A model generated the notes under the pieces. That model was not told where the DNA came from and searched no databases. It saw only the letters and a program-made list of their open reading frames with translations. DNA of 59,896 bases from the NCBI GenBank assembly GCA_964545925.1, contig CAZJHM010000001.1, forward strand, positions 1 through 59,896, written 5' to 3'. Source of the stretch: an uncultured archaeon (lineage in GTDB: Archaea; Iainarchaeota; Iainarchaeia; Iainarchaeales; CAZJHM01). Made by a program: the position numbers and the translations under genes. Of this stretch, positions 18,655 through 53,692 are shown piece after piece (position 1 is the first letter of the stretch; each line of letters starts with the position of its first letter).

Positions 18655-19397
18655 GAAATTATCTTTTTTCAGATTATTTCTATCCTTCTAAAAATTTGAA
18701 AGACACAATAAAATCTTTTTCAATAAAATACAAAGGAGATGCTGATATAGTTATATCTCCACATGCTGGATATAAATATTCAGGTAAAACTTCTGCATTA
18801 TCTATTTCTCACTTACAAAAATCTCAAGAGTATGTTCTTTTAGGTCCAAGCCATAATGGAATTGGAGAGATTACAATCAGTACTGAGGATTGGGAAACTC
18901 CTCTCGGAGTAGTGAAAAACAGCGAAAAAACAAAAGAAGTCTTGAAAGAGATAGGGACAGAAAATAACTCTGCTCATTATCAAGAACATTCTTTGGAAAT
19001 TATCTTACCTTTAATGCAAAATTATCTAAAAAAATTTAAAATTATTCCAATTAATCTAAATGTTCAAAAGAAATCTAAGCTAGAAGAGCTCTCAGAAATT
19101 TTATTTAAATTAAAAATTCCAATTGTTGTTTCTTGTGACTTTTCTCATTATTTAAGTCCTGAAAATGCGAAAAAAAATGATTATGATGCAATAGATTCTT
19201 TGTTGAAAGAAAAACCTGATGAGTTTTATAAAAAAGTTGTTGAAAAAAAATATTCAATTTGTGGTTACCAAGGTGTTTTTGTTGCTTCTTTAATTGCTAA
19301 GAAAAAGAAATTAAAACCAGAGTTATTAGAATATACTCAATCAATAGGAGAAAAAGTTGTAGGTTATTCTTCAATTATATATAAAGATTATACATAA
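18651..19397 (+). CDS. MEMO1-family protein (AmmeMemoRadiSam system protein B-like)
   Basis: YFYPS...VISPHAGYKYSGKTSA...LGPSHNG...CDFSHY motifs. Position after rps2. Confidence 0.75.
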   Translation: MRNYLFSDYFYPSKNLKDTIKSFSIKYKGDADIVISPHAGYKYSGKTSALSISHLQKSQEYVLLGPSHNGIGEITISTEDWETPLGVVKNSEKTKEVLKEIGTENNSAHYQEHSLEIILPLMQNYLKKFKIIPINLNVQKKSKLEELSEILFKLKIPIVVSCDFSHYLSPENAKKNDYDAIDSLLKEKPDEFYKKVVEKKYSICGYQGVFVASLIAKKKKLKPELLEYTQSIGEKVVGYSSIIYKDYT

Positions 19398-34849: not shown

Positions 34850-35425
34850 TTAAAGATATCTAGCTCTTTTTTCTATTTTCTCAACTTGAGATTCTACTTC
34901 TTTGTCTGCATACCCGCGAATTATCTCTTGCCAAGCTTTGGAAAGTTCAGGATGAGTAGAAGAAAATGTCTTTTTGAGATTTAACAAATCAACTGCTTTG
35001 TCTTCCAAACGAGAAGAACGGAAAGACAAACCAAAATCAATAAAAAATAGTTTTTTTCCATCTACAAGAATATTTGAACTAGTTAAATCCCCATGGATTA
35101 AGCCTCCTTTATGCATTTGAGAGATTTGTTTGCCTAAAAGAAAACAAAGGGTTTTGTAATTAAGAGGGGAAAGAAAAGTTTGAAGTTTTTCATAAGGCAA
35201 ATATTCTAAAAAAAGAGTTGTTTCTTTTTTAGAAACAACACTTGGAGAATTTAAGCCTAAACGACGAGAATAAGAGAGGGATTTTTCTTCTCTATTTGTT
35301 CTTTGTAATCTGATTTCTTTGTCTAAAAAAGGATTTCTGTAAGATTTAGAAAGTCTTTCTTTCTTTATTATTCCATCTGAAAGAGAAATTACTGCTTCTG
35401 CTCCTTGATAAAGTATTTTATCCAT
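34850..35425 (-). CDS. bud32: Kae1-associated kinase Bud32
   Basis: LYQGAEAVISL..., IHGDLTSSNILV, IDFGLS kinase motifs. ATG at 35425; the track ORF extends to 35464. Confidence 0.85.
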   Translation of the reverse strand: MDKILYQGAEAVISLSDGIIKKERLSKSYRNPFLDKEIRLQRTNREEKSLSYSRRLGLNSPSVVSKKETTLFLEYLPYEKLQTFLSPLNYKTLCFLLGKQISQMHKGGLIHGDLTSSNILVDGKKLFFIDFGLSFRSSRLEDKAVDLLNLKKTFSSTHPELSKAWQEIIRGYADKEVESQVEKIEKRARYL

Positions 35426-35536
35426 AAAACTAAAAGCAAAACACAGCTTTTTAAACCTTTTCAAAGGAAAAATAAATATACGATTTAAAGACAGCTTTCC
35501 AATACCAATAGGACTGGAAAGAAAAAGGTGTTTTAA

Positions 35537-36031
35537 ATGACAAAAAAAGAAGACGAAATAGTGGAAGATATTGTTGAAGAACTAAAGGAAGAAGAAAAGA
35601 AAGCTGAGAAAAAACCTAAAAAAGAAAAGAAAAGAAAAATAAGAGAATTCTCAGATTTAAAGCCAGAAGAAGTAAAGGCAATTATACTTGACTTAAATAA
35701 TAAAGGAAAGACAAAAAGTGAGATAGGAGTAATACTAAGAGAACAACATGGAGTTCCAAAAGCAAGTGTTATACTTAAAAAATCAATTGGAGAATTTTTA
35801 AAGGAAGAAAAAATAACTCAAGATATACCTGAAGACTTAATGAGTTTAATAAGGAAAAATGTTTCATTAAAATCACATTTAGGAACTAATAAAAAAGACT
35901 ATACTGCAAAAAGAGGATATGAATTATCTCTTTCAAAAATTAGAAGATTAGTCAAATACTATAAAATGAATAAAAAACTCCCAGATAAATGGGTTTATAC
36001 AGATGAAATCGGAACTTTATTGGTGAAGTAA
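35537..36031 (+). CDS. rps15: 30S ribosomal protein S15 (uS15/S13e) with K/E-rich N-terminal extension
   Basis: EEVKAIILDLNNKGKTKSEIGVILREQHGVPK...; C-terminal S15 helix region. Confidence 0.9.
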   Translation: MTKKEDEIVEDIVEELKEEEKKAEKKPKKEKKRKIREFSDLKPEEVKAIILDLNNKGKTKSEIGVILREQHGVPKASVILKKSIGEFLKEEKITQDIPEDLMSLIRKNVSLKSHLGTNKKDYTAKRGYELSLSKIRRLVKYYKMNKKLPDKWVYTDEIGTLLVK

Positions 36032-36132
36032 AATGTTTAAGATAAAAATCCAAAAAGACAATAAAATAGTTAGCCAAGGTAATTATACAGCTAAAGAAAT
36101 AGACAAAATAATAATGGAGTTAGGTGAATAAG

Positions 36133-36750
36133 ATGGCAAAAGAAAAAACAACTGAAAAACCAACAAAAAAGAATGCTCCTAAAACAAAGGTTAATGTTGA
36201 TAAATGGAAAAGAAAAATAAATGTAAGAATAATTGCTGATAAAAATTTTGATAACAAAGAATTGGGAGAAACAATGGCAACAAAGCCAGAAAATATAATT
36301 GGAAGAAAAATAAAAGTTAATATGGCTGATTTAACAGGACAAAGACAAAAAAGACATGTAAAAATTATATTTGCAATAAAATCAATTGAAGGAAATTTAG
36401 CAAAGACTCAAGCAATGGGATTTGATACTTCTCATGGATATCTTTCAAGAATAGTCAGAAAAAGAAACAGTAAGATAAGCACTATTTTAATAGATAAAAC
36501 AAAAGATAAAAAAACTGTAAAAACAACATTGACTGCAGTTGCAGGAGTAAAAGTTCCAGAAAGCACAGAAAAAGAAATAAGAAAAACTCTAACTACTGAC
36601 TTAAAAGAAGAAATGAACAAAAAGGATTTTGATTTATTTCTTCAAGAACTTTTATTTGGGGGATTTGTGTCTCGCTTGTTTAAAAAGATAAACAAAGTTG
36701 CTCCAATAAAAAGAATTGAGATTGAAAAAGTATTAGTTCTCAAGGAATAG
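36133..36750 (+). CDS. rps3ae: 30S ribosomal protein S3Ae (eS1)
   Basis: VDKWKRKINVRIIA...NIIGRKIKVNMADLTG. ATG at 36133 after AGGTGA; the track uses the GTG at 36124. Confidence 0.9.
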   Translation: MAKEKTTEKPTKKNAPKTKVNVDKWKRKINVRIIADKNFDNKELGETMATKPENIIGRKIKVNMADLTGQRQKRHVKIIFAIKSIEGNLAKTQAMGFDTSHGYLSRIVRKRNSKISTILIDKTKDKKTVKTTLTAVAGVKVPESTEKEIRKTLTTDLKEEMNKKDFDLFLQELLFGGFVSRLFKKINKVAPIKRIEIEKVLVLKE

Positions 36751-36752
36751 AT

Positions 36753-37427
36753 ATGATTTCTGCTTTGACAATTGCAATTTTTGTTTTTTTATTCTTAGTT
36801 TTTGTAATTGCTATTTACTTCAAAAAGCTAGATATCAAAGGAGGAATATTAGCATTTATTTTAGGAATAACTATATATTTCTATCAAGGTTTGTTTATTT
36901 TGGTTCCCATTTTAGTCTTCTTTATATCATCAACAGTAATTGATGCTTTTAAAAAGAAAAAACATAAAGCAAGAGGAATAGGAAATGTTTTAGGTAACTT
37001 GGGTGTGGCTCTTTTGCTTCTTTTAATTGAATTTATTTCAGGATATACATTAATTGTTCCTATATATGCTTCTATTGCTGGAGCTTTCTCTGATACTATT
37101 TCTTCTGAATTAGGAATGTTTTCAAAAGAAAAACCAATAGATATAGTTACAAGGAAAAATGTTAAAAAAGGGACAAATGCTGGAATAACTATTTTTGGAA
37201 CTTTGTGCGGATTAATTGCAGCTTTTATTCTCTCAGGAATCTTCTTTTACTTCACTGGTTTGCTAAAAGAAGCAATAATAATTGGAATTGCAGGATTTGC
37301 AGGAACTATAATTGATTCTTTATTAGGAAAGCTTGAGAATAAAGGAAAATTAGAAAATGACCAAGTCAACTTCTTAGCCACAGCTGGTTCAGGATTAATA
37401 GCTTGGCTAATTCTTATTCTGATTTGA
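36753..37427 (+). CDS. DUF92 / TMEM19-family integral membrane protein (family of plant phytyl-phosphate kinase VTE6)
   Basis: Polytopic; FFISSTVIDAFKKKKHKARGIGNVLGNLGVA resembles the DUF92 core. Starts 3 nt after the rps3ae stop. Confidence 0.6.
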   Translation: MISALTIAIFVFLFLVFVIAIYFKKLDIKGGILAFILGITIYFYQGLFILVPILVFFISSTVIDAFKKKKHKARGIGNVLGNLGVALLLLLIEFISGYTLIVPIYASIAGAFSDTISSELGMFSKEKPIDIVTRKNVKKGTNAGITIFGTLCGLIAAFILSGIFFYFTGLLKEAIIIGIAGFAGTIIDSLLGKLENKGKLENDQVNFLATAGSGLIAWLILILI

Positions 37428-37466
37428 ATAGTTCTGATTTAAAAAAACTATGGTTTTCTTTCTTAT

Positions 37467-37961
37467 ATGATTGAACTATTAAGATTGTTTTTGATAATAG
37501 TTCCTATGTATTGTGCTAATGGTTCTGCTTTAGTTTTTGGGGGTAAAAAACCTTTAGATTTTGGGATTAAATTTATTGATAAAAAACCTATTTTTGGCAA
37601 AGGAAAAACAATAAAAGGAAGTTTAGCTGGATTAGGAGCAGGGACTCTGGCAGGAACACTTTTATTTGCTTTTGGTTTAGGATTTGAAAATTACTTGTTA
37701 TTTTCTTTCTTGTCTTCTTTAGGAGCTATATTTGGAGATTTAGTAGGCTCATTTATAAAAAGAAGAATAAATATTGCTCCTGGAAAAGACTTATTTCTTA
37801 TAGATCAATTAGATTTTGTAATTGGAGCTCTTTTATTCACTTACGGAATATTATATCCTAGTATTTATGAAATATCAGCAATTATAATATTGACAATATT
37901 TATGCATAAAGCAACTAATTATTTGGCTTTTGTATTGAAACTTAAAAAGGTGCCTTGGTGA
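37467..37961 (+). CDS. carS: CDP-archaeol synthase (CarS, DUF46)
   Basis: MYCANGSALVFGG..PLDFG, GKGKTIKGSLAG, GDLVGSFIKRR, IDQLDF and the C-terminal KKVPW closely parallel characterised archaeal CarS. Confidence 0.9.
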   Translation: MIELLRLFLIIVPMYCANGSALVFGGKKPLDFGIKFIDKKPIFGKGKTIKGSLAGLGAGTLAGTLLFAFGLGFENYLLFSFLSSLGAIFGDLVGSFIKRRINIAPGKDLFLIDQLDFVIGALLFTYGILYPSIYEISAIIILTIFMHKATNYLAFVLKLKKVPW

Positions 37962-38413
37962 AATACAAATTTATCATAAAATTCTTGATTATCTTTCTTC
38001 TATTGCAATATTTAATACTTAATATAGATCTAATTGGTTTAGAAACAACAATAGCACAAATAGAAGGAAAAATATTGGGTTTGGAAAATTTTAACAATGT
38101 GATTTTAAAAGAAGATATAGCTTTTGTAATTGGCCCAAACTGCACTGGATTATTGAATTCAGCAATATTAGTTGCTTTAGTTTTTTCATTTAGAAAACCT
38201 AAACTTGATAAGAAAATAATGTTTTTAGCAGCAGGAATATCTATCATACTTCTAGTAAATTTGATAAGATTATATTTAATTTTGCTTGCTCCTAGCGAAT
38301 ATGTTTCTATATTACACACTTTAAGTTGGTATATTAATTCTATTATAGTTCTTGGGTTATGGTATTGGTTTATGAAAAAGGAACTAAAGTCATTTAATGA
38401 ACTAAAAGAATGA
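37955..38413 (+). CDS. mini exosortase/archaeosortase-family protein
   Basis: 152 aa, 4-5 TM segments. Ordered Cys-Arg-His motifs of the family: IGPNCTGLLNS, VNLIRLYLILL, ILHTLSWY. The start overlaps the carS stop. Confidence 0.65.
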   Translation: MVKYKFIIKFLIIFLLLQYLILNIDLIGLETTIAQIEGKILGLENFNNVILKEDIAFVIGPNCTGLLNSAILVALVFSFRKPKLDKKIMFLAAGISIILLVNLIRLYLILLAPSEYVSILHTLSWYINSIIVLGLWYWFMKKELKSFNELKE

Positions 38414-38442
38414 TTTATATTCCTTTAAGACAAAAATAGTAT

Positions 38443-39171
38443 ATGCCGCCAAGCGAAAAATTATTAAAAGATTTACAAAAAGGACTGTCTGAATTAACTA
38501 GATATATAGAAAAAAACAAGATAGAAACAATAGTAATTACTGGGAAAAGTGCATTTATTGCAAGAAACTTATTAAGGGAATATTGGATTCAGACTAGAAA
38601 TCCAATGATAGATAGAATAAAATTCTTCAGTTTAGGGGACAGAACAAGCCAAATGAAACAACGAATTTTTGAGGAAAAAAAAGAAAAATCTTATGTTCTA
38701 CAAACAGAAGATATAGAATGGTTTAAAGGAATAGATGGGGGAAAATTAGCAAAAACTCTTGAAAAAGAAAAAAACAAAAGAGTAATGATTTTAGACGAGG
38801 TTGTGTCAAGTGGAAGAACTCTATTTTTATTAAAACAGATTTTTAAATCAATGGGGTTTAAAGACATTAAATTAGCAGCCATAGGTTCTTTAGATTTAAA
38901 GTATAATTCTGAAGTTAAAAGAAATGTATTTGTGCCTAAAGTATTACAATACAGAAGAGATATTATCTATTTATATGGATTAAGAAGAAAACTTTATAGC
39001 TATGTAACAAATCAAGACAAACCTAGAAGAACACAGGAATATCTAAGAGAACTTGCTCAAACAGAAAATCTAAAAAATAAAAAAATAGTGGATAGATTTG
39101 GAGAATATGTAAGAGAAAATCCTGAACCACTTAAAAAAGGATTTTTCAGAAGATTGTTTAGAAGATATTAG
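38443..39171 (+). CDS. phosphoribosyltransferase-like protein
   Basis: Near-canonical PRPP-binding loop VMILDEVVSSGRT (DE instead of DD). The rest has no recognisable motif. Confidence 0.5.
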   Translation: MPPSEKLLKDLQKGLSELTRYIEKNKIETIVITGKSAFIARNLLREYWIQTRNPMIDRIKFFSLGDRTSQMKQRIFEEKKEKSYVLQTEDIEWFKGIDGGKLAKTLEKEKNKRVMILDEVVSSGRTLFLLKQIFKSMGFKDIKLAAIGSLDLKYNSEVKRNVFVPKVLQYRRDIIYLYGLRRKLYSYVTNQDKPRRTQEYLRELAQTENLKNKKIVDRFGEYVRENPEPLKKGFFRRLFRRY

Positions 39172-40763
39172 TCTTTGATTAACATCTTTATTACTTCTCC
39201 ATAAGCTGGACGAGTAATTAAAATTCCAACTAAAACACCTAAGATAGTTGTTATTGCAAAACCAACTAATTTTCCTAAACCATATCCCATTAAAATCAAA
39301 GGAGACATTGTTGCAATAACTGTTGCAGCAGCTGCAACTATAATAAAAAAAGCTTTCTTTATACGGGAAGAAACTGTTAAACTTTCATCTTCTTTTCTTC
39401 TTTCAAGAACTTCATCAGCAATAACTATTTGATCATCAACTCCTGTTCCAACTGAAGCTAATAAACCAGCAACTGCCCCTAAGTCAAGTTTACTGATTAA
39501 GGAAACTAAAGCAGTTGTAATAAATACTTCACTTATTCCTGTTAAAATAATTGGAATTACAATTTCTTTTGTTCTATATCTTATATAAAGAACTAATGCA
39601 ACTGTTAATAAAGCAATTAAACCTATAATTCCTGCTACAAGCAAGAAATTCTGCCCTAATAAAGGAGAAATAACTTCTTTGCTTATGCTTTTGACTGGAG
39701 CAGATAAAGAGCCTGAATCTAAAATAATTTCCATATCTTGTCTTTCGCTTTTTGCTTTATCTAAACTATCTGCATATCCTCTAATTAAGAGTTTGCTCAT
39801 TAAAGTTGCTTGAGAAACATTTGCAACATCCATATTTGCAACATCTTCCTGCAAAGAAACTACACTTCTTAAACCTGAAGCATTTACTATCCATGGTTTT
39901 TCAGACTCAGTTTCTATAACTTTTACATCAAAACCATTGTTTTCTAAATATTCTCTTAAACTAGATAAATCAGGAGTTATAATTACTTTATCTTTTCCAG
40001 TTGCTAAAAGTTGTTGTTTTTGTGCGTCTGTTAATATTCCATCTGAAACTAAAACATAATCTGTGTTTATTTGTTCAAGAATTTCTTCTATACTTGAATC
40101 TTTTGGAACTATTCCTTCAACTCCATATTCTAAAAGAGAATTATCTTCTGAATAAATTTCTGTACTTAATAAAAGAACTGAGTCTAAAGGACGGTCAATA
40201 AAGAAATAAACATACTCACAATCATATTGCTTTCCACCTGAACTATTCAAAGAAGAAAGCTCACATCTATGGAAAGTTCCTTCTGTGAATTTCTTTGCCC
40301 CTGAAGAACTTAAAACAAAAGGTAAAGTCCAAGAATAAGAACCATCTGAATTTCTAGTTATTGAATAACCTTGAGATGCATCTTTTAAAACTTTGATTAT
40401 ATCATCTCCTGTTAAAATTGCTTGTCCATCCAAAACAGATTCAAAAACTCCTTGCTTTCTTAACAAGCTTTCAATTCTTGCTATTGTTTCAGGATTTGTT
40501 TCTGCCATTTGAGCTAGAACAAAATCATCTCCAAAGAAAGAAACTGTTGTGTCTTTTAATCCTGTCCAATCTAAACGACTTTCAATTGTTTTAACTAATC
40601 TAGCTTTTTCTTCAGGACTAGTAATTGATTTATCAAACTGAATTTGGAACATTGTTCCTCCTTCAAAATCAATTCCAAAATCTATACCTCTGAAAGAAAT
40701 TATTAAAAAAGAAAAGATAAGCATTACTGCAACTAAAAGTAATTTATAGTTTTTAAGATTCAT
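39168..40763 (-). CDS. secD: protein-export membrane protein SecD
   Basis: N-terminal TM, large extracytoplasmic domain, C-terminal 5-TM bundle. 4-nt overlaps with secF and the upstream gene. Confidence 0.85.
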   Translation of the reverse strand: MNLKNYKLLLVAVMLIFSFLIISFRGIDFGIDFEGGTMFQIQFDKSITSPEEKARLVKTIESRLDWTGLKDTTVSFFGDDFVLAQMAETNPETIARIESLLRKQGVFESVLDGQAILTGDDIIKVLKDASQGYSITRNSDGSYSWTLPFVLSSSGAKKFTEGTFHRCELSSLNSSGGKQYDCEYVYFFIDRPLDSVLLLSTEIYSEDNSLLEYGVEGIVPKDSSIEEILEQINTDYVLVSDGILTDAQKQQLLATGKDKVIITPDLSSLREYLENNGFDVKVIETESEKPWIVNASGLRSVVSLQEDVANMDVANVSQATLMSKLLIRGYADSLDKAKSERQDMEIILDSGSLSAPVKSISKEVISPLLGQNFLLVAGIIGLIALLTVALVLYIRYRTKEIVIPIILTGISEVFITTALVSLISKLDLGAVAGLLASVGTGVDDQIVIADEVLERRKEDESLTVSSRIKKAFFIIVAAAATVIATMSPLILMGYGLGKLVGFAITTILGVLVGILITRPAYGEVIKMLIKD

Positions 40764-41836
40764 AATGTTCCACCTTTAGAACTTAGATATTTAAGCAAAA
40801 TTGGAGCATTCATTAACCAAGTTGAGATTATGTCTCCAAACAATCCAAAAAGAAGAACTATTGCTAAATTAAAGATTACATTTACTTGCATGAAATATGA
40901 GACAATAACCATTGTTAAAAGAGCACAAACAGTTGTCAAAGTCATTGTAAGTCCTGTTTTCATACTAAGGACTGTTTCTTTTCTTAAAGCATGTTTAGAA
41001 CTTGTTAAACGACTTGTTAGCATTATATCTGTATCAACTGAATATCCAATTAACATTAAAAGAGCAGGAATACTTGAAAGAGACAAAGGAATTTGGAAAA
41101 GAGCCATAAAAGCTAAAGCACTCATAATATCAAAAAAAGCAGCAAGTATAATTGCTAGACTTAAAACTGGGTCTCTGAAAAAGAAGAAAATAACTAAAAC
41201 AATTAAAACTATAGAAACCAAACTAAGATTGATAGCTGTTTGCCAGAAAGTATCTCCTAAAGTTGGGGCTATATCTTCTTTTTGGAAAGCTAAAGTTTTA
41301 ACTACAAACTTCTTTTCTATATTTGAAACAATAAAATCAGAATAGGATTTCTGGGCATCATAATAACCTTGTTCTAAAATTGTAAATGCTTTAGAATAAT
41401 CATTTGAAGAAATAAAAGAATCATATTCTTGTTTTTGCTTGAAATAACTGCCTAAAAAAGAAACTGTTTTGCCCATTTCTTTTTTTGCTTCTTCTGGATT
41501 ATCTGAAATTAAAGACTTTGCTGTTGAAAGAGAAAGTTCTGCATCTTCCAAAAACTTTGCTCCGGAATATTCAATTGTTAAACCATTTGAATTAGGAGCA
41601 CTAACTGAATAAACTTTAAGTTCTTGTATATCTAAAGATTGCAAAAGATAAGCTTCTACTTCTTTTGCATCAACTGGTTTGTCTAATTTAAGTATAATCA
41701 TAGAACCTCCTTTGAGTTCTATTCCACGGGGAACTGTTGGAAATATGAAAATTAAATATACAAAAAGAAGGAAAAACAAGGCAGGGATAACCATAAGACG
41801 CATATAATTGCCTTTATAGATATCTATACCAATCAT
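40760..41836 (-). CDS. secF: protein-export membrane protein SecF
   Basis: IELKGGSMIILKL periplasmic head plus a 5-TM C-terminal bundle. Archaeal secF-secD order. Confidence 0.85.
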   Translation of the reverse strand: MIGIDIYKGNYMRLMVIPALFFLLFVYLIFIFPTVPRGIELKGGSMIILKLDKPVDAKEVEAYLLQSLDIQELKVYSVSAPNSNGLTIEYSGAKFLEDAELSLSTAKSLISDNPEEAKKEMGKTVSFLGSYFKQKQEYDSFISSNDYSKAFTILEQGYYDAQKSYSDFIVSNIEKKFVVKTLAFQKEDIAPTLGDTFWQTAINLSLVSIVLIVLVIFFFFRDPVLSLAIILAAFFDIMSALAFMALFQIPLSLSSIPALLMLIGYSVDTDIMLTSRLTSSKHALRKETVLSMKTGLTMTLTTVCALLTMVIVSYFMQVNVIFNLAIVLLFGLFGDIISTWLMNAPILLKYLSSKGGTL

Positions 41837-45264: not shown

Positions 45265-45774
45265 ATATTTTTCAGAGACAAAGTCTGATAATCCATTACG
45301 AGAAAAAAGTTTTTTTATTCTTAAATTTTTGATTTCTTTAAATCCATTTTTCAAGGCAACTCTTTGACTTCCTTTGTTTTCAGGATGAGTACAGATAACA
45401 AGAAGTTTAGGAACAGAAGAATCTCTCTTAGCTTTTTTCTCCAATCTTTCTAAAATTTGTTTAAGAGCAGATGTAGTTATTCCTTTGCCCCAATATTTTT
45501 TACTTATACCATAACCTATTTCTATATAGGAAATTTCTTTTTTGAAATTAGGCATAACTCCTATAAAACCAACTAATTTATTGTGGAAAAAGATTGCAAA
45601 GTCTTTGCGGGACTTGTCTGCTAAAAAATCTTTAATTATTTTCTTTTCTTCAGCTAAAGAAGAAGGTGGTTTATGACTCCAGTATCTGAGAAAGTCTTTG
45701 TCTTTAAGGATTTTGTAAAAAGCAGAAGCATAAGAAACCTGAAAAGGTTTTAGTAAGACATCAGTATTTTTCAT
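45211..45774 (-). CDS. GNAT-family N-acetyltransferase (RimJ/RimL-like)
   Basis: IGYGISKKYWGKGITTSALKQIL and HPENKGSQRVALKNGF motifs. Start chosen at MKNTDV; the track ORF extends to 45837. Confidence 0.8.
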   Translation of the reverse strand: MKNTDVLLKPFQVSYASAFYKILKDKDFLRYWSHKPPSSLAEEKKIIKDFLADKSRKDFAIFFHNKLVGFIGVMPNFKKEISYIEIGYGISKKYWGKGITTSALKQILERLEKKAKRDSSVPKLLVICTHPENKGSQRVALKNGFKEIKNLRIKKLFSRNGLSDFVSEKYLNIVLSEKRNSLFNPIS

Positions 45775-46648
45775 GTTTTGTGTCCTCATATGAAAATGCT
45801 TTTCCTTGCCCTGCCAAGATAGAACGAAGAGTAACATAATTGATTGTTCTTTCTATGTCTTCTTTTCTAGTTGACATTGACTTTACTTGTTGAGAGAGAA
45901 CCTCTAAGAATGTGCGGGATTTGGAAAGAAGATGCACAAAAAATCTTTTGTCTAACCCTGCTTTTTGAACTATTTCTTGGAAGTTTATTCCTCCTCTGTA
46001 TTTTTTACCAAGTCTTTTCAAATCAGTTGAACTTAAATTAAATTTTCCTTCGGAAAATTTTTTAAGAATAGGCAAATCCATTAATGGAAAAACCAATTGA
46101 GAAGTAGCTATCTGATGTTTCAAGTCAGGGGAATGGAAGCTTGTATTTACAACTTCAAAATAATCAGATAATCCTCTTTCTCTCAAATAATCTTCAATTG
46201 CTTGTTTTCTAAATTCACTAATTCCAGATAAACCATATACTCCTAAAACACAAATTTTGAATCTGTTAGAAGGATTAAATTTCTTACCAAAACTACTCCG
46301 GAAAATCATGCTATTTATTTCTTTTAAAATGTCTCTTTCTTGTCTTAGTAAATTACCCCATTTAGAAAAATTTTTGTCAAAAAAAGATTTTGAACAGTGT
46401 TTTGGGAAGTTCTCCAATTGTTCAGGACTAACTTCTTGTTTTAATTGAAATGTTTTTAAAGCCCCATTTTCAAAATGAGTTAAAAGAATATTCAAAGTTG
46501 GATTAGGAATTACTCTAGAAGGAAGAGGTTGTTTTTCAGGTTTTAATTTAGAAAAAAACTCTCTTGGTAATCTTTTTGTTTGTTCTTTATTTTCTCCCTG
46601 AATTCCATTTATTTTTCTTTGAAAAGGATTTAATTTGCGAGGAGGCAT
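45761..46648 (-). CDS. hypothetical protein, co-directional and immediately downstream of ispH
   Basis: Long ORF with normal amino-acid composition and no motif I recognise. ATG at 46648; the track's TTG at 46681 overlaps the ispH stop. Confidence 0.6.
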   Translation of the reverse strand: MPPRKLNPFQRKINGIQGENKEQTKRLPREFFSKLKPEKQPLPSRVIPNPTLNILLTHFENGALKTFQLKQEVSPEQLENFPKHCSKSFFDKNFSKWGNLLRQERDILKEINSMIFRSSFGKKFNPSNRFKICVLGVYGLSGISEFRKQAIEDYLRERGLSDYFEVVNTSFHSPDLKHQIATSQLVFPLMDLPILKKFSEGKFNLSSTDLKRLGKKYRGGINFQEIVQKAGLDKRFFVHLLSKSRTFLEVLSQQVKSMSTRKEDIERTINYVTLRSILAGQGKAFSYEDTKHEKY

Positions 46649-46677
46649 ATAAAACAAAGACAAAAAGAAAATAAAAA

Positions 46678-47583
46678 TCAATCGATTTTGAAGTCTGCAG
46701 CTATTTCTTGCATACCTATAACTCTCATCTTGTCTACTTGTTCTGCTTGCCCACCAAGTTTAATTACAACTTCTTTGATTGAAAAGTCAGGTGTTGAGGC
46801 TCCAGCAGTTATTCCTATGCGAGAGTGAGAAAGTGCTTTTGAAGAATCTAATTCTGTAGCATCTTCTATATGAAGAGTTTCTACATGTTCAGAACAAGCT
46901 TTTGCTAACTTCTGAGTATTTGAACTATGCTTTCCTCCTATGACTATCATTAAGTCAACCTTCTTTGCAAGCTCTATTGCCGAAGCCCTGTGCATAATGC
47001 TTGCTATGCAAATTGTGTTATAAACTTCCATTAGTTTGGCATCTTGAGCTATTGCTCCAACTATATCTCCAAAAACTTTTTGCAAGTGAGTTGTTTGAGA
47101 AACAACCCCGACTTTTTTTTCTTTTAAATCAGGAAGTTCATCTAAAGAATTAACTGCTATTCCTTTTTGAGTATGACTTAAAATCCCAGTTACTTCAGGA
47201 TGAGAAGATTTTCCAACAACAACAACTTTGTATCCTTTTCTCTCTAACATATCTGCTTTTTTCTGGACATCCAAGACAAATGGACAAGTTGCATCTATGT
47301 ATTTTGCTCCCATTTCTTTCAATTGAGAATATGTTTCTTTTGGCTCTCCATGTGCTCTAATAATAACAATTGAATCATGTGGATTTTTTATTTCATCTAA
47401 AGATTGAATTTCTTCAATTCCTTTTTCTCTTAACCACTCAGACATTGCATTATTGTGAACTAATTGCCCCAAAACAAGAATTTTCTTGGATGGGTTTTCT
47501 TCTTTTGCTTTTAAAGCTAGTTTAACAGAATTAATAACTCCAAAACAAAAACCTGAATTATCTGCAACTATTATTTCAGTCAT
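46678..47583 (-). CDS. ispH: 4-hydroxy-3-methylbut-2-enyl diphosphate reductase (IspH/LytB)
   Basis: ADNSGFCFGV, DATCPFV, YNTIC (three cluster cysteines), VIGGKHSSNTQKL. Confidence 0.92.
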   Translation of the reverse strand: MTEIIVADNSGFCFGVINSVKLALKAKEENPSKKILVLGQLVHNNAMSEWLREKGIEEIQSLDEIKNPHDSIVIIRAHGEPKETYSQLKEMGAKYIDATCPFVLDVQKKADMLERKGYKVVVVGKSSHPEVTGILSHTQKGIAVNSLDELPDLKEKKVGVVSQTTHLQKVFGDIVGAIAQDAKLMEVYNTICIASIMHRASAIELAKKVDLMIVIGGKHSSNTQKLAKACSEHVETLHIEDATELDSSKALSHSRIGITAGASTPDFSIKEVVIKLGGQAEQVDKMRVIGMQEIAADFKID

Positions 47584-47602
47584 TTTTAAACAACCTCGTA
47601 CA

Positions 47603-47626
47603 ATTGTCTAAATATATATAGACAAT
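47603..47626. promoter_or_regulatory. 24-bp palindrome in the ispH / dxr divergent promoter region
   Basis: ATTGTCTA-AATATATA-TAGACAAT, perfect 8-bp arms around an AT-only core, in the 80-bp gap between divergent MEP genes. Confidence 0.5.
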
Positions 47627-47663
47627 CGAAATACTTTTAAACCTCCTTTTTCATTAAACATAT

Positions 47664-48803
47664 ATGAAAGAACTAATTGTAATGGGTTCAACTGGGTCAA
47701 TTGGAACTCAGACACTGGATGTCGTAAGACAGCACAAGGAAAAATACAAAATAATTGGATTGTCTGCAAACAGTAGTATAGACAAACTAATGGAACAAGC
47801 AAAAGAATTCAATGTTGAGAATATTGCTATTGTTAATAAAGAAAAAGCTGATGAGTTTGAGGAAAAAACAAAACTAAATGTAATGAAAGGAGAAAAAGGA
47901 TTATTAGAAATAGCTGAAATAAAAAGTGATATTTTTGTTAATAGTGTTGTTGGAGCTGCAGGTTTGAAACCTACATTAAAAGCTTTGGAAAACACAGGAA
48001 GAATGGCTATAGCTAATAAAGAGACTTTGGTTGTTGCTGGAGATTTAGTAATGCCTAAAGCAAAAGAACTAGGAGTTGAGTTATTGCCTATTGATTCTGA
48101 ACATTCTGCTCTTTTTCAGTGTTTGCAAGGAAACAACCAAAAAGACATAAAGAGATTAATAATAACTTGTTCAGGCGGAAGTTTCAGAGACACACCTCCT
48201 GAAAAACTAAAAGAAATGACTGCTAAAGAAGCTTTGAATCATCCAACTTGGAGCATGGGAGCAAAGATAACAATTGATTCAGCTACTTTGTTTAACAAAG
48301 GATTAGAAGTTATTGAAGCACATTTCTTGTTTGATATGCCTTATGACAAGATAGAAACTGTTATGCATCCTCAAAGTATAATTCATAGTATGATTGAATA
48401 CAGAGATGGAAGTATAATGGGACAATTAGGACAACATGATATGAGGATACCTATTGTTTATTCTTTGAGCTGGCCTGAAAGGATTGACTTGAATGTTGAA
48501 AAATTAGATTTTGTTAAATTAGGACAACTGACTTTTAGACAAATAGACCATCAGACTTTTCCTGCATTAAATTTAGCTTATGAAGTTGGAAGAAAAGCAG
48601 GAACAGCAAGAGCAGTAATGAATGCTGCAAATGAAGAAGCTGTATATGCTTTCTTAGATGGAAAGATAAAATTCTTGGAAATATACAAAAATGTAAAAGA
48701 TGCAGTTGATAATCACAAGTTTATGCAAAAGCCAAATATTGATGAACTTTTAGAAGCAGATAAATGGGCAAGAGAATATGTTAGAGGGAAAATAAATGGA
48801 TAA
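47664..48803 (+). CDS. dxr: 1-deoxy-D-xylulose 5-phosphate reductoisomerase
   Basis: GSTGSIGTQTLDV, IDSEHSALFQC, NKGLEVIEAHFLF. Confidence 0.95.
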   Translation: MKELIVMGSTGSIGTQTLDVVRQHKEKYKIIGLSANSSIDKLMEQAKEFNVENIAIVNKEKADEFEEKTKLNVMKGEKGLLEIAEIKSDIFVNSVVGAAGLKPTLKALENTGRMAIANKETLVVAGDLVMPKAKELGVELLPIDSEHSALFQCLQGNNQKDIKRLIITCSGGSFRDTPPEKLKEMTAKEALNHPTWSMGAKITIDSATLFNKGLEVIEAHFLFDMPYDKIETVMHPQSIIHSMIEYRDGSIMGQLGQHDMRIPIVYSLSWPERIDLNVEKLDFVKLGQLTFRQIDHQTFPALNLAYEVGRKAGTARAVMNAANEEAVYAFLDGKIKFLEIYKNVKDAVDNHKFMQKPNIDELLEADKWAREYVRGKING

Positions 48804-49482
48804 TATTGGTGTTATTCTTGCTGCTGGTTTAGGAGCAAGAATGAACTTAGGTTACAATAAAGCTCTTTTGGAAATTTATGGTAAGCCAGTTATCTACTAT
48901 ACTCTGGAATCTTTTGAAAAAAGCCAAATAGATGGAATTATTCTAGTTGTAAAAGAAGATGAAAAAGAAACAATGAAAGAAATAGTTGACAAATATGGAT
49001 TTAAAAAAGTCAAGAAGATTGTAGAAGGAGGAAAAAGAAGGCAAGACAGTTCTTTGAATGGAATAAAAGCTGCAAAAGAAATAAGGGGGAAAAATGTTTA
49101 TGTTCAAGATGGAGCAAGATGTTTGATAACTCCTGAGCAGATAAATGAAATGATAAAAATAATGGAAAAAGAAGAATGTTGCACAGCAGGAACAAAAGAA
49201 AAAAACACAATGAAAGAAGTAGATTCTGAGAAAAGAATTGTCAGGACTGTGCCAAGAGATAATTTAATGGAAATGCAAACTCCACAAGCTTCTCGAACTG
49301 ATTTACTATTAGAAGCATTTGAAAAATTGGGAGACAAAGATATAACAGATGAAAATATGGCTTTGGAAAATTTAGGCAAAAATCCTTTAGTTTATGATTC
49401 TGGTTCTGCAAATATCAAGATAACTGTTCAAGATGATATTCCAATTGCTGAGGCAATATTAAAGAGGCAGGGAAGATGTTAA
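48796..49482 (+). CDS. ispD: 2-C-methyl-D-erythritol 4-phosphate cytidylyltransferase
   Basis: GVILAAGLGARM N-terminus, GGKRRQDS, MQTPQ motif. Confidence 0.9.
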   Translation: MDNIGVILAAGLGARMNLGYNKALLEIYGKPVIYYTLESFEKSQIDGIILVVKEDEKETMKEIVDKYGFKKVKKIVEGGKRRQDSSLNGIKAAKEIRGKNVYVQDGARCLITPEQINEMIKIMEKEECCTAGTKEKNTMKEVDSEKRIVRTVPRDNLMEMQTPQASRTDLLLEAFEKLGDKDITDENMALENLGKNPLVYDSGSANIKITVQDDIPIAEAILKRQGRC

Positions 49483-49967
49483 TAGGATTAGGTGTAGATA
49501 GCCACAGATTTGAGGAACAAAAAACAAAACCTTTTGTTCTAGGAGGAGTGGAGTTTGACGAACCTTTGTCTATGAAAGCTAATAGTGATGGAGATTTAAT
49601 ATTACATGCTTTATGTAATGCAATTGGCTCCGCAATTGGAGAAGGAAGTCTTTCTAATTATGCTGATAAAATGTGCTTGGAACAAGGAATAAAAGACTCA
49701 AAAGAATATCTTAAATTTATTTTAAAAGAGGCAGAAAAAAAAGGATGGAAAGTAAAGCAGGTTGTTGTTTCTTTGGAGTGCAAGAAACCTAAGATTGAAG
49801 TCAAAAGAGAAAAAATTCAGGAATCTTTGGCTAAACTTTTAAATGTAAAAAAAGAAAAGATAGGGATTACTGCAACTTCAGGAGAAGGATTAACTGATGT
49901 GGGAAGAGGAGATGGAATCTATTGCATAGTAAATATTTTGATGGGGAGATTAAATGAAAACTCTTAA
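49476..49967 (+). CDS. ispF: 2-C-methyl-D-erythritol 2,4-cyclodiphosphate synthase (divergent)
   Basis: IGLGVDSHRF, SDGDLILHAL and GITATSGEGL..GRGDGI match IspF. The Zn-ligand His of AHSDGD is Asn here (ANSDGD), and the FPDTD loop is not recognisable. Confidence 0.8.
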   Translation: MLIGLGVDSHRFEEQKTKPFVLGGVEFDEPLSMKANSDGDLILHALCNAIGSAIGEGSLSNYADKMCLEQGIKDSKEYLKFILKEAEKKGWKVKQVVVSLECKKPKIEVKREKIQESLAKLLNVKKEKIGITATSGEGLTDVGRGDGIYCIVNILMGRLNENS

Positions 49968-50787
49968 TGCTTATGCTAAATTAAATTTATTATTAGACTT
50001 TTATGGGAAAAGAACAAATGGATATCATGAAGTTAATTTTGTAAATACTCCTATTTCTTTGGCAACTGAATTAAATGTAAAATATAATGATTCAGGAGAG
50101 ATTAGATTAAAGTCTGAAAACAATATTCCTTTAGATGAAAATAACTTTATACATAAGATAATCTCAAGAATAAAAGAAAACTACTCTTTAGATTTTGGAA
50201 TAGAAGTTGAAATTAAAAAAGGAAAAGAATTTGCTGGATTAGGAATTGGAAGTTCAGAAACTGCAAAAATACTAAATGAACTAAATGAAAAGTTTCAGTT
50301 GAAATTAATGGAATCAGAAAGAGCTGAATTAATTAAAGATATAACTTCAGATGGTTGTTTTTCAATCTATGAAAAACCAGCTGTTGTTAGAGGATTTGGA
50401 GAAAGAGTTTTTCCGCTCCGAAAAATAGAAATGCATGGAGTAGTTTTTGGAGTTCCTGCTGAAGTTCCTGAAAAGAAAACAAAATGGATGTATGGAAAAA
50501 TAACAAAAGAAATGTTTACTCCTGTTGATTGTTTGCCTATAGTAAAAGCTATAATGGAAAATAATTGGCAAGGAATAAAATCAAACTTGCATAATTTCTT
50601 TGAGAAACTGGATATTCCAGAATACAAAGAAAGTTTTGATTTAATAAAAGAACTAAGAAAAGACGGATATGGTTCAATATTGGCAGGTTCTGGCCCAACT
50701 GTTTTTGCTATTTGCAAAAACAAAGAACAAGCAGAAGAACTTTCCAATAAATATAAATATGATAGCAAAGTAATAGAGGCGGTGTAA
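49954..50787 (+). CDS. ispE: 4-diphosphocytidyl-2-C-methyl-D-erythritol kinase
   Basis: AYAKLNLLLDFYGKRTNGYHEV plus the GHMP loop GLGIGSSETA and GSGPTVFA. Confidence 0.88.
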   Translation: MKTLNAYAKLNLLLDFYGKRTNGYHEVNFVNTPISLATELNVKYNDSGEIRLKSENNIPLDENNFIHKIISRIKENYSLDFGIEVEIKKGKEFAGLGIGSSETAKILNELNEKFQLKLMESERAELIKDITSDGCFSIYEKPAVVRGFGERVFPLRKIEMHGVVFGVPAEVPEKKTKWMYGKITKEMFTPVDCLPIVKAIMENNWQGIKSNLHNFFEKLDIPEYKESFDLIKELRKDGYGSILAGSGPTVFAICKNKEQAEELSNKYKYDSKVIEAV

Positions 50788-51858
50788 ATGGAAATAAAAA
50801 GAAAAAAAACTAGACAAGTTTCAGTTGGAAAAGTTAAAGTTGGAGGTAATAGTCCAATAAGTGTGCAAAGTATGTGTGATACAAAAACACATGATGCAAA
50901 AGCAACTATTTCACAAATACATAGTCTGGAAGAAGTTGGATGTGAGATAATAAGAGTTGCTGTTCCTGATATGGAAGCTGCAAAAGCATTGAAAGAAATA
51001 AAAGAAAACATAAACATACCTTTGGTTGCAGATATACATTTTGATTATCGCTTAGCTTTGGAAAGTGCTAAGTATGTTGATAAAATAAGAATAAATCCTG
51101 GAAATATTGGAGATAAAGAAAAAACAAAAATGGTTGTAAATGATTGTAAAGAAAGAGGATTGCCTATAAGAATAGGAGTTAATTCTGGTTCTGTTGAACA
51201 AGACTTGTTGGAGAAATATGGACATCCAACTCCTGAGGCAATGGTTGAATCAGCTATGAAGCATGTTAAGATTCTGGAGGATTTAGATTTCCAAGACACA
51301 ATGATATCTGTAAAAGCAAGCAATGTTCCTGGAACAATTGATGCATATACAATTCTTTCAGAAAGAGTTGATTATCCTTTGCATGTGGGAGTAACAGAAG
51401 CAGGAACTGAATTTCAAGGAGCAATTAAATCCTCAGTTGGAATTGGATATTTGTTAGCAAATGGAATAGGAGATACAATAAGGGTTTCTTTAACTGGAGA
51501 TGTTGCGAAAGAAGTAGAAGCAGGATATGGGATTCTTAAATCTTTGAATCTAAGGACAAGAGGAGTGAATATAACCTCATGCCCAACCTGCGGAAGAACT
51601 CAGATAAACTTGGTTGCTTTAGCAAAAAAAGTTGAAGAACTAACCAAAGGAATAAAAGAGCCTGTTCATATTGCAGTAATGGGTTGTATAGTTAATGGAA
51701 TAGGAGAAGGAAAAGAAGCGGATATAGGAATAGCTGGAGGAAAAAATCAAGGAGTAATTTTCAAGAAAGGAGAGATAATAAGAAAGTGTGAAGAAAGTGA
51801 GTTATTAGATGCATTTATGGAAGAACTGGATAGGTTATTAGAAGAAAGAAAAAAGTAA
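50788..51858 (+). CDS. ispG: 4-hydroxy-3-methylbut-2-enyl diphosphate synthase (IspG/GcpE)
   Basis: RKKTRQVSVGKVKVGGNSPISVQSM, SCPTCGRT, MGCIVNGIGEG. Confidence 0.95.
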   Translation: MEIKRKKTRQVSVGKVKVGGNSPISVQSMCDTKTHDAKATISQIHSLEEVGCEIIRVAVPDMEAAKALKEIKENINIPLVADIHFDYRLALESAKYVDKIRINPGNIGDKEKTKMVVNDCKERGLPIRIGVNSGSVEQDLLEKYGHPTPEAMVESAMKHVKILEDLDFQDTMISVKASNVPGTIDAYTILSERVDYPLHVGVTEAGTEFQGAIKSSVGIGYLLANGIGDTIRVSLTGDVAKEVEAGYGILKSLNLRTRGVNITSCPTCGRTQINLVALAKKVEELTKGIKEPVHIAVMGCIVNGIGEGKEADIGIAGGKNQGVIFKKGEIIRKCEESELLDAFMEELDRLLEERKK

Positions 51859-51874
51859 AATAGAAGGTGGTAGT

Positions 51875-53692
51875 GTGATTCTGGATAAAATAGAAAGCCC
51901 TAAGGATGTCAAGAAATTGACTATTCCTGAAATGGAGCAATTAGCTCAAGAAATAAGAGAGGAAATGATTGCAAGTGTAACTAAAACTGGTGGGCATCTG
52001 GCTCCTAATCTGGGAGCAATTGAATCAATAATTGCTATGCATTTTGTTTATGATGTTCCTAAAGACAAAGTTATATTTGATGTTGGACATCAAGCTTATG
52101 CTCATAAAATGCTGACTGGAAGAAGAAAGCAAATGGGAAGTTTAAGACAGTTTAAAGGAATAGCTGGATTTTTGGAAAGAGAAGAAAGCCAGTATGATGT
52201 TTTTGGAGCTGGACATACATCTACTTCTATTAGTGCAGCAACTGGATTTGCAATTGCCAAGAAACTAAAAAAAGAAACAAATGAAGTTATTGCATATATA
52301 GGAGATGGAGCATTGACAGGAGGAATGGCTTATGAGGCTTTGAATTTTGCTGGACATCATAGATTGAATTTAACAGTTATATTAAACGACAATAAAATTA
52401 GTATATCCCCAAATGTTGGAGCAATGAGCAAACATCTAAAAAGATTAAGTGATATATCTGCAAATGGAAGAGTAGATGTTGAAACTATATTTGAAAAAAT
52501 GGGTTTTACTTATTTAGGCCCTATAGATGGACATAATATATCTGAATTAATTGCAATGCTGGAAGAAAGCAAAAAAATAAAGACACCTGTGATTATACAT
52601 ACCTTGACAAAAAAAGGAAAAGGATTGAAAGAAGCAGAGGAAGACCCAACCAAATATCATGGAGTATCTTGTATGGTTGGAGAAAAATCAGCTGGAAAAA
52701 AATCAATCAGTTATTCAAATGTGTTTGGAGAAACTTTATCAAAGTTTGCAGAAGAAGATGATAGTATAATAGGCATAACTGCTGCAATGGCAAATGGAAC
52801 AGGAATGATAAAATTTGCTGAAAAATTTCATGAAAGATTTTTTGATGTTGGAATTGCTGAACAACAAGCAGTAACTATGGCTGCTGGTTTAGCTGCTTCT
52901 GGATACAAAGCATGTCCAGCAATATATTCAACTTTTTTGCAAAGAGCATTTGACCAAATACAGCAAGATGTTGATTTGCAGAATTTACCTGTTAAATTTT
53001 TCATAGACAGAGCTGGATTGGTTGGAGAAGATGGAGCAACACATCATGGAACTTTGGATATTGCTTATTTGAGTATGCTTCCAAATATGACAGTAATGGC
53101 TCCAAAAGATTCATTTGAACTAAAAAGAATGATAAAAACATCTTTGAATTATGATAAAGGTCCAACTGCTGTTAGATATCCAAAAGGAGCATGTGAAAAA
53201 GAAGGAAAAGAAGAAGGAAAAATTGAGAATTTAGAAATAGGGAAAGCAGAAGTTTATTCAGAAGGTAGTGATTTAAATATTGTTTCTCTCGGAGCAATAA
53301 CTCCTATTGCTGATTCAGCTTTGGACAAGATAAATGGAAGTGTCGGATTAGTAAATGCAAGATTTGCAAAACCATTTGATGAAAACATGATTGAAAGATT
53401 AGCTAAAAAAGCTCCTCTTTTGATTATAGAAGAAGGAACAATTATCTCTGGTTTTTCAGCAAACATAGCTTTGCACTTGCAACAGAAAGGAATAGATGCC
53501 CAATTGAAAGTTTTAGCAATTCCTGATAGATATATAAGACATGCAACAAGAGAAGAACAACTGGATATGCTTGGATTTAATTCAGAGAATATTGCCAAAA
53601 TTTCAAATGAGATAATAAAAGGAAACTCTCCTTTGTTTGCACCAGAAGATTATAAAGAACTTGTTAGACAATATAATAACAAAGATAAGTGA
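51875..53692 (+). CDS. dxs: 1-deoxy-D-xylulose 5-phosphate synthase
   Basis: GGHLAPNLGAIE, DVGHQAYAHKMLTGR, GDGALTGGMAYEALN. GTG start preceded by AAGGTGG. Confidence 0.95.
   Translation: MILDKIESPKDVKKLTIPEMEQLAQEIREEMIASVTKTGGHLAPNLGAIESIIAMHFVYDVPKDKVIFDVGHQAYAHKMLTGRRKQMGSLRQFKGIAGFLEREESQYDVFGAGHTSTSISAATGFAIAKKLKKETNEVIAYIGDGALTGGMAYEALNFAGHHRLNLTVILNDNKISISPNVGAMSKHLKRLSDISANGRVDVETIFEKMGFTYLGPIDGHNISELIAMLEESKKIKTPVIIHTLTKKGKGLKEAEEDPTKYHGVSCMVGEKSAGKKSISYSNVFGETLSKFAEEDDSIIGITAAMANGTGMIKFAEKFHERFFDVGIAEQQAVTMAAGLAASGYKACPAIYSTFLQRAFDQIQQDVDLQNLPVKFFIDRAGLVGEDGATHHGTLDIAYLSMLPNMTVMAPKDSFELKRMIKTSLNYDKGPTAVRYPKGACEKEGKEEGKIENLEIGKAEVYSEGSDLNIVSLGAITPIADSALDKINGSVGLVNARFAKPFDENMIERLAKKAPLLIIEEGTIISGFSANIALHLQQKGIDAQLKVLAIPDRYIRHATREEQLDMLGFNSENIAKISNEIIKGNSPLFAPEDYKELVRQYNNKDK

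Follow-up and report, generated by a model that had tools for sequence, protein, structure and literature searches.

What is the role of a 152-residue membrane protein whose gene begins inside the last codons of carS, the gene for CDP-archaeol synthase? The question is raised by positions 36753-38413 of contig CAZJHM010000001.1, a low-GC archaeal fragment (~30% GC; 60 kb, or 59,896 nucleotides) that was analyzed at full length and is referred to here as the window. The region contains three co-directional open reading frames (ORFs), at the same coordinates as in an earlier sequence-only reading, which had recognized a DUF92 membrane protein, CarS and a small archaeosortase-like protein. Other genes of the window include large ribosomal-protein operons, Bud32, S15, S3ae, Orc1/Cdc6 and SecD/SecF. 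By sequence comparison, the small protein represents a new subfamily of minimal archaeosortases from DPANN archaea, for which no curated model exists. In the loci examined, its gene is obligately paired with carS and located directly downstream of it. The features that define the pair are the following.

37467-37961, forward strand: carS, CDP-archaeol synthase (CDP-2,3-bis-(O-geranylgeranyl)-sn-glycerol synthase), 164 residues; assigned by NF003114, PF01864 and PDB 5GUF
37946-37961, forward strand: probable coupling junction AAGGTGCCTTGGTGA, with Shine-Dalgarno-like AGGTG, sortase start and carS stop; read from the sequence
37955-38413, forward strand: minimal archaeosortase-family protein with four predicted transmembrane (TM) helices, 152 residues, unnamed subfamily; assigned by TIGR04178 (41.1 bits)
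38141-38143, forward strand: codon of Cys63, putative catalytic nucleophile, CTG motif, predicted outer end of TM2; invariant in 68/68
38258-38269, forward strand: codons of Asn102-Arg105, NxxR motif, predicted outer half of TM3; both invariant in 68/68
38315-38329, forward strand: codons of His121-Trp125, HxxxW motif, predicted outer end of TM4; His in 67/68, Trp in 68/68

A small archaeosortase family encoded behind carS

The 152-residue protein matched the exosortase/archaeosortase signature TIGR04178 over residues 59-140, above the cutoff of 23 bits, and the same signature was matched by all 68 sequences in our family alignment. The assignment to this superfamily, previously based on short motifs, was therefore upheld by a hidden Markov model (HMM) comparison. 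When 1.84 billion cluster representatives (clustered at 50% identity) were searched exhaustively with HMMER, 123 homologous clusters were identified at E <= 1e-3, of which 64 also passed E <= 1e-10; almost all were 140-215 residues long. A word-indexed homolog search recovered the query alone, and its profile version only 4 proteins. Family members came from metagenome-assembled genomes (MAGs) labeled Diapherotrites/Iainarchaeum (Iainarchaeota) or Micrarchaeota, and are annotated in source databases as "hypothetical protein" or, generically, as "exosortase/archaeosortase family protein". The 123 homologous clusters, together with a confident AlphaFold2 model (predicted local distance difference test score, pLDDT, 95.5; predicted template modeling score, pTM, 0.88), argue that the reading frame is not a chance ORF. 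A 125-residue antisense ORF (37942-38319, reverse strand) is located wholly inside the sortase gene; as the protein on the sense strand is strongly conserved, this ORF is in all likelihood spurious.

The best subfamily match was ArtD (TIGR04175), both for the window protein (52.4 bits against a cutoff of 125) and for 65 of the 68 members, with a best E-value in the family of 2.9e-14. The window protein aligned with the ArtD model end to end, with residues 5-139 placed on model positions 4-139 of 150. ArtE (28 bits; cutoff, 95), pacearchaeosortase (NF033505; 19.3 bits; cutoff, 80), XrtX and others scored below ArtD. The enzyme had earlier been compared with ArtA; the ArtA model (TIGR04125) did not match the window protein at E <= 1 and gave weak matches to 27 of the 68 relatives (best E-value, 5.8e-10). 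None of the 68 members reached the cutoff of any named subfamily, and the window protein thus falls outside ArtA and all other named groups. Because scores were far below every subfamily cutoff, we treat the family as a separate, uncurated subfamily. Its small size, which had seemed unusual at about half the length of ArtA, is not new in itself: the curated models for ArtB (TIGR04144), ArtD, ArtE (TIGR04124) and pacearchaeosortase have only 150-167 positions.

Phe6, Phe10, Cys63, Gly65, Asn102, Arg105 and Trp125 were invariant in the 68 aligned sequences, and His121 was present in 67 of them. Cys63, Arg105 and His121 are the ordered Cys, Arg and His that had been noticed in the PNCTG, NLIR and LHTLSW motifs of the window protein, and their conservation across the alignment substantiates that observation. 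The AlphaFold2 model, built with the same alignment, contains helices at residues 2-23, 27-41, 66-78, 84-111 and 114-143 and a small three-stranded sheet at 44-58; 4 long hydrophobic helices are present. Both termini are basic, the region 24-60 carries +2/-6 charges, the loop 80-87 (RKPKLDKK) is strongly basic (+5/-1) and the loop 112-116 is neutral to acidic. Since these charges obey the positive-inside rule, a topology with four TM helices and a cytoplasmic N-terminus is predicted. Cys63 and His121 would then be located where TM2 and TM4 start, respectively, and Arg105 in the outer third of TM3. This would put the three residues in the outer-leaflet half of the membrane, where they would be expected in an enzyme that cleaves immediately outside a C-terminal membrane anchor.

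CarS itself scored above the equivalog cutoff of NF003114 (168.2 bits; cutoff, 148), matched PF01864 (142.8 bits; E-value, 1.5e-41) and aligned over residues 4-164 with the solved Aeropyrum CarS (PDB 5GUF_A; E-value, 8.6e-31), in agreement with its earlier identification. At the junction (AAAAAGGTGCCTTGGTGAAA), the carS stop codon TGA (37959-37961) is overlapped by either of two possible start codons of the sortase gene (TTG, 37955; GTG, 37958). Both fall within the last carS codons, with AGGTG just 5' of them. The overlap, already described in the sequence-only reading, can be read directly at the junction, and the two genes are probably translationally coupled. Fusions of CarS and sortase into a single chain (Rosetta-stone proteins) were absent among unusually long matches, all of which were N-terminally extended sortase-family proteins. 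For some family members (L003:5465-6055, P0136, P0146, P0148 and P0189), the called gene has 40-60 additional N-terminal residues, whose reading frame runs over the 3' end of carS; this may reflect gene-caller over-extension or a genuine longer overlap with carS.

Conservation of the pair was assessed in loci from contigs of the nearest CarS homologs, from GTDB species genomes and JGI metagenomes scanned with the sortase alignment, and from three divergent members; a metagenome scan with a 6-sequence alignment added 2 loci. Gene order was computed with the window proteins as queries, and loci were de-duplicated at 90% identity. The resulting set comprised 16 distinct sortase lineages with a median pairwise identity of 36% (minimum, 23%). 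In all 15 lineages with readable upstream DNA, carS was the immediately preceding gene, and the sortase start ranged from 7 nt inside carS to 31 nt past the carS stop, often as a tGGTGA-type overlap. The co-occurrence of the two genes in related genomes, and the recurrence of the pairing seen at the window junction, were thus confirmed. Each locus contained exactly one family member, and no member was found away from carS in the 15 informative lineages.

The typical gene order in Iainarchaeota-type loci was Bud32, S15, S3ae, DUF92, an optional opposite-strand S49/SppA-NfeD gene, carS and sortase, followed by convergent SecD/SecF genes. Insertions and rearrangements occurred within this block, including the S49 peptidase, a phosphoribosyltransferase-like gene in the window and a relocated SecD in L011, and never at the carS-sortase junction. 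The coupling persisted at sortase identities of 23-28% (L017 and L025). In L025, a Micrarchaeota-labeled MAG (GCA_043806595.1), the sortase (103 bits on the family HMM) starts 6 nt after carS, and every other neighbor is different. Four further CarS loci, from Methanobacterium, a Woesearchaeota MAG, a Micrarchaeota MAG other than L025 and an unassigned lineage (L007), had neither a sortase nor DUF92 beside CarS when screened, for the sortase, with the family HMM.

Proposed lipid anchoring of secreted proteins and alternative explanations

It has been reported that ArtA of Haloferax volcanii cleaves the PGF-CTERM signal of proteins that are then lipid-anchored, and that conserved active-site residues are required (PMC6098224). 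ArtA-dependent cleavage and lipidation in this organism also need PssA, which forms archaetidylserine from CDP-archaeol, and PssD, which produces archaetidylethanolamine (PMC7157517). The artA, pssA and pssD genes are syntenic in Methanosarcina, and the authors proposed that the amine of ethanolamine resolves the ArtA thioester (PMC7157517). Because the CarS product, CDP-archaeol, is the substrate of PssA, the window locus may be read as the ArtA-Pss logic one step upstream, in the form of an overlapping carS-sortase bicistron in compact Iainarchaeota and Micrarchaeota genomes.

We lean, with little more than even confidence, toward the interpretation that the window protein is a predicted catalytically intact four-helix archaeosortase of an Iainarchaeota (Diapherotrites)/Micrarchaeota subfamily, paired with carS, that lipid-anchors secreted proteins. 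A secreted protein would be retained in the membrane by a C-terminal helix. Cys63, aided by Arg105 and His121 at the outer face, would cut just before this helix and form a thioester intermediate, which would be resolved by the nucleophilic headgroup of an archaeol-based lipid derived from CarS-made CDP-archaeol, leaving the protein lipid-anchored. Co-translation with CarS would ensure that both enzymes are co-expressed, and possibly co-localized, at sites of membrane growth. In this scheme we infer a protease or transpeptidase activity, a lipid acceptor and, for the physical unit considered below, contact between CarS and the sortase.

Several neighboring genes bear on this interpretation.

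L003:3897-4853, L005:4047-4955, L008:2941-3912 and L017:3415-4425, reverse strand: divergent S49/SppA-NfeD peptidase genes, between DUF92 and carS
L025:5525-6283, forward strand: Lon_C (S16) protease with a signal anchor; its gene start and the sortase stop overlap
L025:2271-4391, reverse strand: 706-residue secreted CARDB-like protein, divergent, beside the pair, with a signal peptide and CARDB-like repeats

The S49/SppA-NfeD peptidase, which is N-terminally membrane-anchored, occurred in about half of the Iainarchaeota lineages and is absent from the window. Speculatively, it could clear the membrane peptide left by sortase cleavage. Outward-facing, membrane-anchored serine proteases flanking the pair fit a theme of protein processing. 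The 706-residue protein of L025 ends (GAGLEFPWKVAIIIVLLILIFVLLTKSDENYHV) in the order of motif, TM helix and tail, with GAGLEFPW before the helix and KSDENYHV after it, and it was the single candidate substrate across all scanned loci; the Iainarchaeota flanks contained no comparable one. The scan of the window for sorting signals returned only antisense artifacts and multi-TM proteins, and no PGF-CTERM protein was seen there.

A number of observations weigh against lipid anchoring by this enzyme. No protein with both a signal peptide and a C-terminal tripartite tail is encoded in the 60-kb window, and the L025 candidate matched none of the curated CTERM models and has a weakly charged tail. 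PssA/PssD-type headgroup enzymes are also absent from the window. The window protein is below threshold for PF09721 (17.5 bits; cutoff, 25.7), a cutoff that its relatives pass, and no meaningful PDB match to a solved homolog of the sortase was found by sequence or by model fold. In addition, a single phylum accounts for most of the supporting lineages, and in it the entire gene order from Bud32 through S15, S3ae, DUF92, carS and sortase to SecDF is syntenic; part of the conservation of the pair could therefore be inheritance, and L025 is the only out-of-context example.

The last points lead to the most serious alternative, in which an ordinary protein-sorting archaeosortase stays behind carS as part of an inherited gene order in a housekeeping block for membrane biogenesis, with no mechanistic or stoichiometric link to CarS. 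With the Bud32-to-SecDF block syntenic in Iainarchaeota-type loci, conservation of any single adjacency is partly expected, and overlaps between unrelated genes are common in compact DPANN genomes. Moreover, haloarchaea do not cluster artA with pssA and pssD even though the three cooperate, which indicates that clustering is not required for function (PMC7157517). However, the block is broken elsewhere, by the S49 gene, the phosphoribosyltransferase-like gene and the relocated SecD of L011, and never at the carS-sortase junction. The pair also survives at the lowest sortase identities, in L017 and L025, and in the completely different neighborhood of L025, and no informative lineage has a family member elsewhere. 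Based on the intact junction, its persistence at 23-28% identity and the L025 context, we argue for selection on the pair itself and consider inherited order unlikely as the whole explanation.

A stronger version of the favored interpretation has CarS physically associated with the mini-sortase as a two-enzyme unit in the membrane, in which fresh CDP-archaeol, or a lipid made from it locally, is the direct source of the anchor. We regard such a unit as rather improbable.

Finally, the mini-sortase might be a lipid-directed partner of CarS, serving as an accessory subunit or as a thiol enzyme whose substrate is CDP-archaeol or a headgroup intermediate, and have no sorting-signal clients. A strict one-to-one, overlapping pairing with a lipid enzyme, the single family member per locus and the lack of client proteins in the window or the Iainarchaeota flanks would all suit this role, and for genomes as reduced as these it might seem expensive to keep a sorting system that serves few clients. 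On the other hand, CarS/CdsA enzymes use cytoplasmic CTP, whereas the active site of the mini-sortase is predicted to face outward; the full Cys/Arg/His set for peptide cleavage is conserved; and the neighboring extracytoplasmic proteases and the L025 surface protein fit protein processing. As all family members that have been characterized or curated are connected with C-terminal processing of proteins (PMC6098224), we consider a purely lipid-directed role very unlikely.

DUF92, the isoprenoid operon and other neighboring genes

The remaining features around the pair are as follows.

36124-36750, forward strand: rps3ae, ribosomal protein S3ae (PF01015; E-value, 1.3e-41); its stop is 2 nt 5' of the DUF92 start
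36753-37427, forward strand: DUF92/COG1836 polytopic membrane protein, 224 residues (PF01940; 130.5 bits)
37438-37445, forward strand: TATA-like string TTTAAAAA in the 39-nt spacer between DUF92 and carS, ~25 nt 5' of the carS ATG
39168-41836, reverse strand: convergent secD/secF pair (PF02355/PF07549), context only; directly 3' of the sortase in most Iainarchaeota-type relatives

DUF92 membership of the 36753-37427 product was corroborated by PF01940, far above its cutoff of 27.5 bits and over model positions 2-248 of 251; TIGR00297 gave 114.7 bits, below its cutoff of 205.85. In each of the 14 Iainarchaeota-type lineages with a locus that extends far enough, S3ae was followed by DUF92, and an alignment of 13 DUF92 sequences contained 27 invariant columns, including H71, R74, D114, E119 and D188. 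The three genes had been described as co-transcribed behind rps3ae. The 2-nt spacer between S3ae and DUF92 is in accord with this description, which holds less well for the link from DUF92 to carS, as an opposite-strand S49 gene intervenes in about half of the lineages. Co-transcription behind rps3ae is thus possible in this genome but is not conserved as a feature of the module. The string TTTAAAAA may be a separate archaeal TATA box for a leaderless carS-sortase transcript, a weak indication, as such strings are common at 28% GC. A scan of 35400-39300 for sigma-70 promoters and intrinsic terminators, models that are not applicable to archaea, gave results at chance level.

The only characterized DUF92 relative is VTE6, a plant phytyl-phosphate kinase whose function had been predicted from COG1836 (PMC9782597). 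By analogy, DUF92 could be a CTP-dependent polyprenyl-phosphate kinase that recycles geranylgeranyl phosphate to geranylgeranyl diphosphate and forms a lipid module with CarS, as had been suggested in part before. Its clear PF01940 membership, the position of VTE6 as sole characterized relative (PMC9782597), the location of the gene within ~1 kb of carS in all Iainarchaeota-type loci and the 27 invariant columns, which suggest an enzyme, are in favor of such a role. However, the tight partner of DUF92 is rps3ae and not carS, with the opposite-strand peptidase gene intervening in many relatives; DUF92 is not beside the pair in L025, nor beside CarS in the four other lineages; TIGR00297 is below cutoff; and no PDB relative exists, while a single-sequence model was unusable (pLDDT, 52). 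We therefore view the kinase role as possible but doubtful. A further candidate role for DUF92, that of the archaeal lipoprotein lipidation enzymes AliA/AliB, was ruled out, as the paper describing them assigns AliA/AliB to other arCOGs and does not mention DUF92.

The window also contains a complete set of genes for the methylerythritol phosphate (MEP) pathway of isoprenoid synthesis, with all seven enzymes found at 46678-53692.

46678-47583, reverse strand: IspH (Pfam LYTB, 275 bits)
47664-53692: Dxr, IspD, IspF, IspE, IspG and Dxs, in this order after IspH

Scores were above cutoff for Dxr (498.6; cutoff, 461), IspD (188.8; 181.3), IspF (143.3; 116.45), IspG (501.6; 345) and Dxs (685.8; 465.95), and slightly below it for IspE (129.6 bits; 138.7). 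In base composition, the operon does not differ from the remainder of the window; the genes on either side of it are archaeal and encode Orc1/Cdc6 and an ADP-forming acetyl-CoA synthetase. The combination of a bacterial MEP route with archaeal ether lipids had been pointed out as chimeric. The complete bacterial-type operon is real, but the combination is not novel, because the MEP pathway has already been published for DPANN archaea: for Woesearchaeota subgroups (PMC8421398), for several Micrarchaeota orders (PMC12892359) and for DPANN MAGs of oxygen-deficient zones, among which Iainarchaeota MAGs were scored as mevalonate-type (PMC10936187). The presence of the full operon in an Iainarchaeota-like genome may extend these findings modestly. 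Two further ORFs flank the MEP region. At the thresholds applied, the one of 306 residues (45761-46681, reverse strand) had no match in Pfam, and the one of 198 residues (57042-57638, forward strand) had none in Pfam or NCBIfam.

Between the sortase gene and secD is a gene for a 242-residue protein (38443-39171) with a weak phosphoribosyltransferase-like match (PF00156; 25.1 bits; cutoff, 26.3). It was rejected as part of the module, being present in the window only and missing from every relative. Elsewhere in the window, a gene directly 3' of ribosomal protein S2 encodes a Memo-like protein (18651-19397; PF01875; E-value, 5e-45).

Relation to known archaeosortase systems

The closest functional parallel is ArtA with PssA and PssD. 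The window enzyme belongs to the same superfamily as ArtA and has conserved residues of the catalytic type, and in both systems a sortase gene is linked to CDP-archaeol metabolism, with PssA consuming the product of CarS. The systems differ in that the window sortase is partnered with CarS, whose reaction immediately precedes that of PssA, and in that its gene overlaps that of its partner, whereas the genes of the ArtA system are neighbors only. Furthermore, the window enzyme has ~150 residues and four predicted TM helices, in contrast to the larger multi-TM body of ArtA. PGF-CTERM-like clients were not found in the window or the scanned loci, and the host is a member of DPANN and not of Euryarchaeota. 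With regard to size, the window family is in the same class as ArtD, ArtE, ArtB, pacearchaeosortase, XrtX, XrtY and XrtH, whose models have 150-168 positions, but it scores far below the cutoffs of all these short subfamilies.

Attachment of lipids to secreted proteins is also known from AliA/AliB, the archaeal lipoprotein lipidation system present in both Euryarchaeota and DPANN (PMC12462473). Here, too, an archaeol-type lipid is attached to secreted proteins (PMC12462473). AliA/AliB, however, use the cysteine of an N-terminal lipobox and a thioether bond, and they constitute an unrelated family (arCOG02177/02178); no homology to the proteins of our locus is implied.

In the examined literature that names both archaeosortase and CDP-archaeol synthase, the carS-sortase arrangement is not described, and, lists of abbreviations or references aside, the two terms are nowhere mentioned together. 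The sequence-only reading had not known the coupling as a described arrangement; a link between archaeosortase and CDP-archaeol metabolism is, however, already known from artA-pssA-pssD (PMC7157517). The pairing with carS extends this known linkage. It introduces no new principle and overturns nothing known.

The attachment of lipids to protein C-termini by archaeosortases is still only a model, whose best support is the genetic dependence of ArtA on PssA/PssD in a single haloarchaeon and the Methanosarcina synteny. An independent and much tighter coupling in another archaeal superphylum strengthens the link between the archaeosortase family and phospholipid synthesis. The uncurated subfamily could receive its own annotation model, and a 152-residue, four-helix enzyme with a fixed partner is a tractable structural and biochemical target. 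If CarS and the sortase do form a physical unit, it would be the smallest known protein-lipidation machine and would provide a natural system for finding the lipid donor and acceptor chemistry of archaeosortases.

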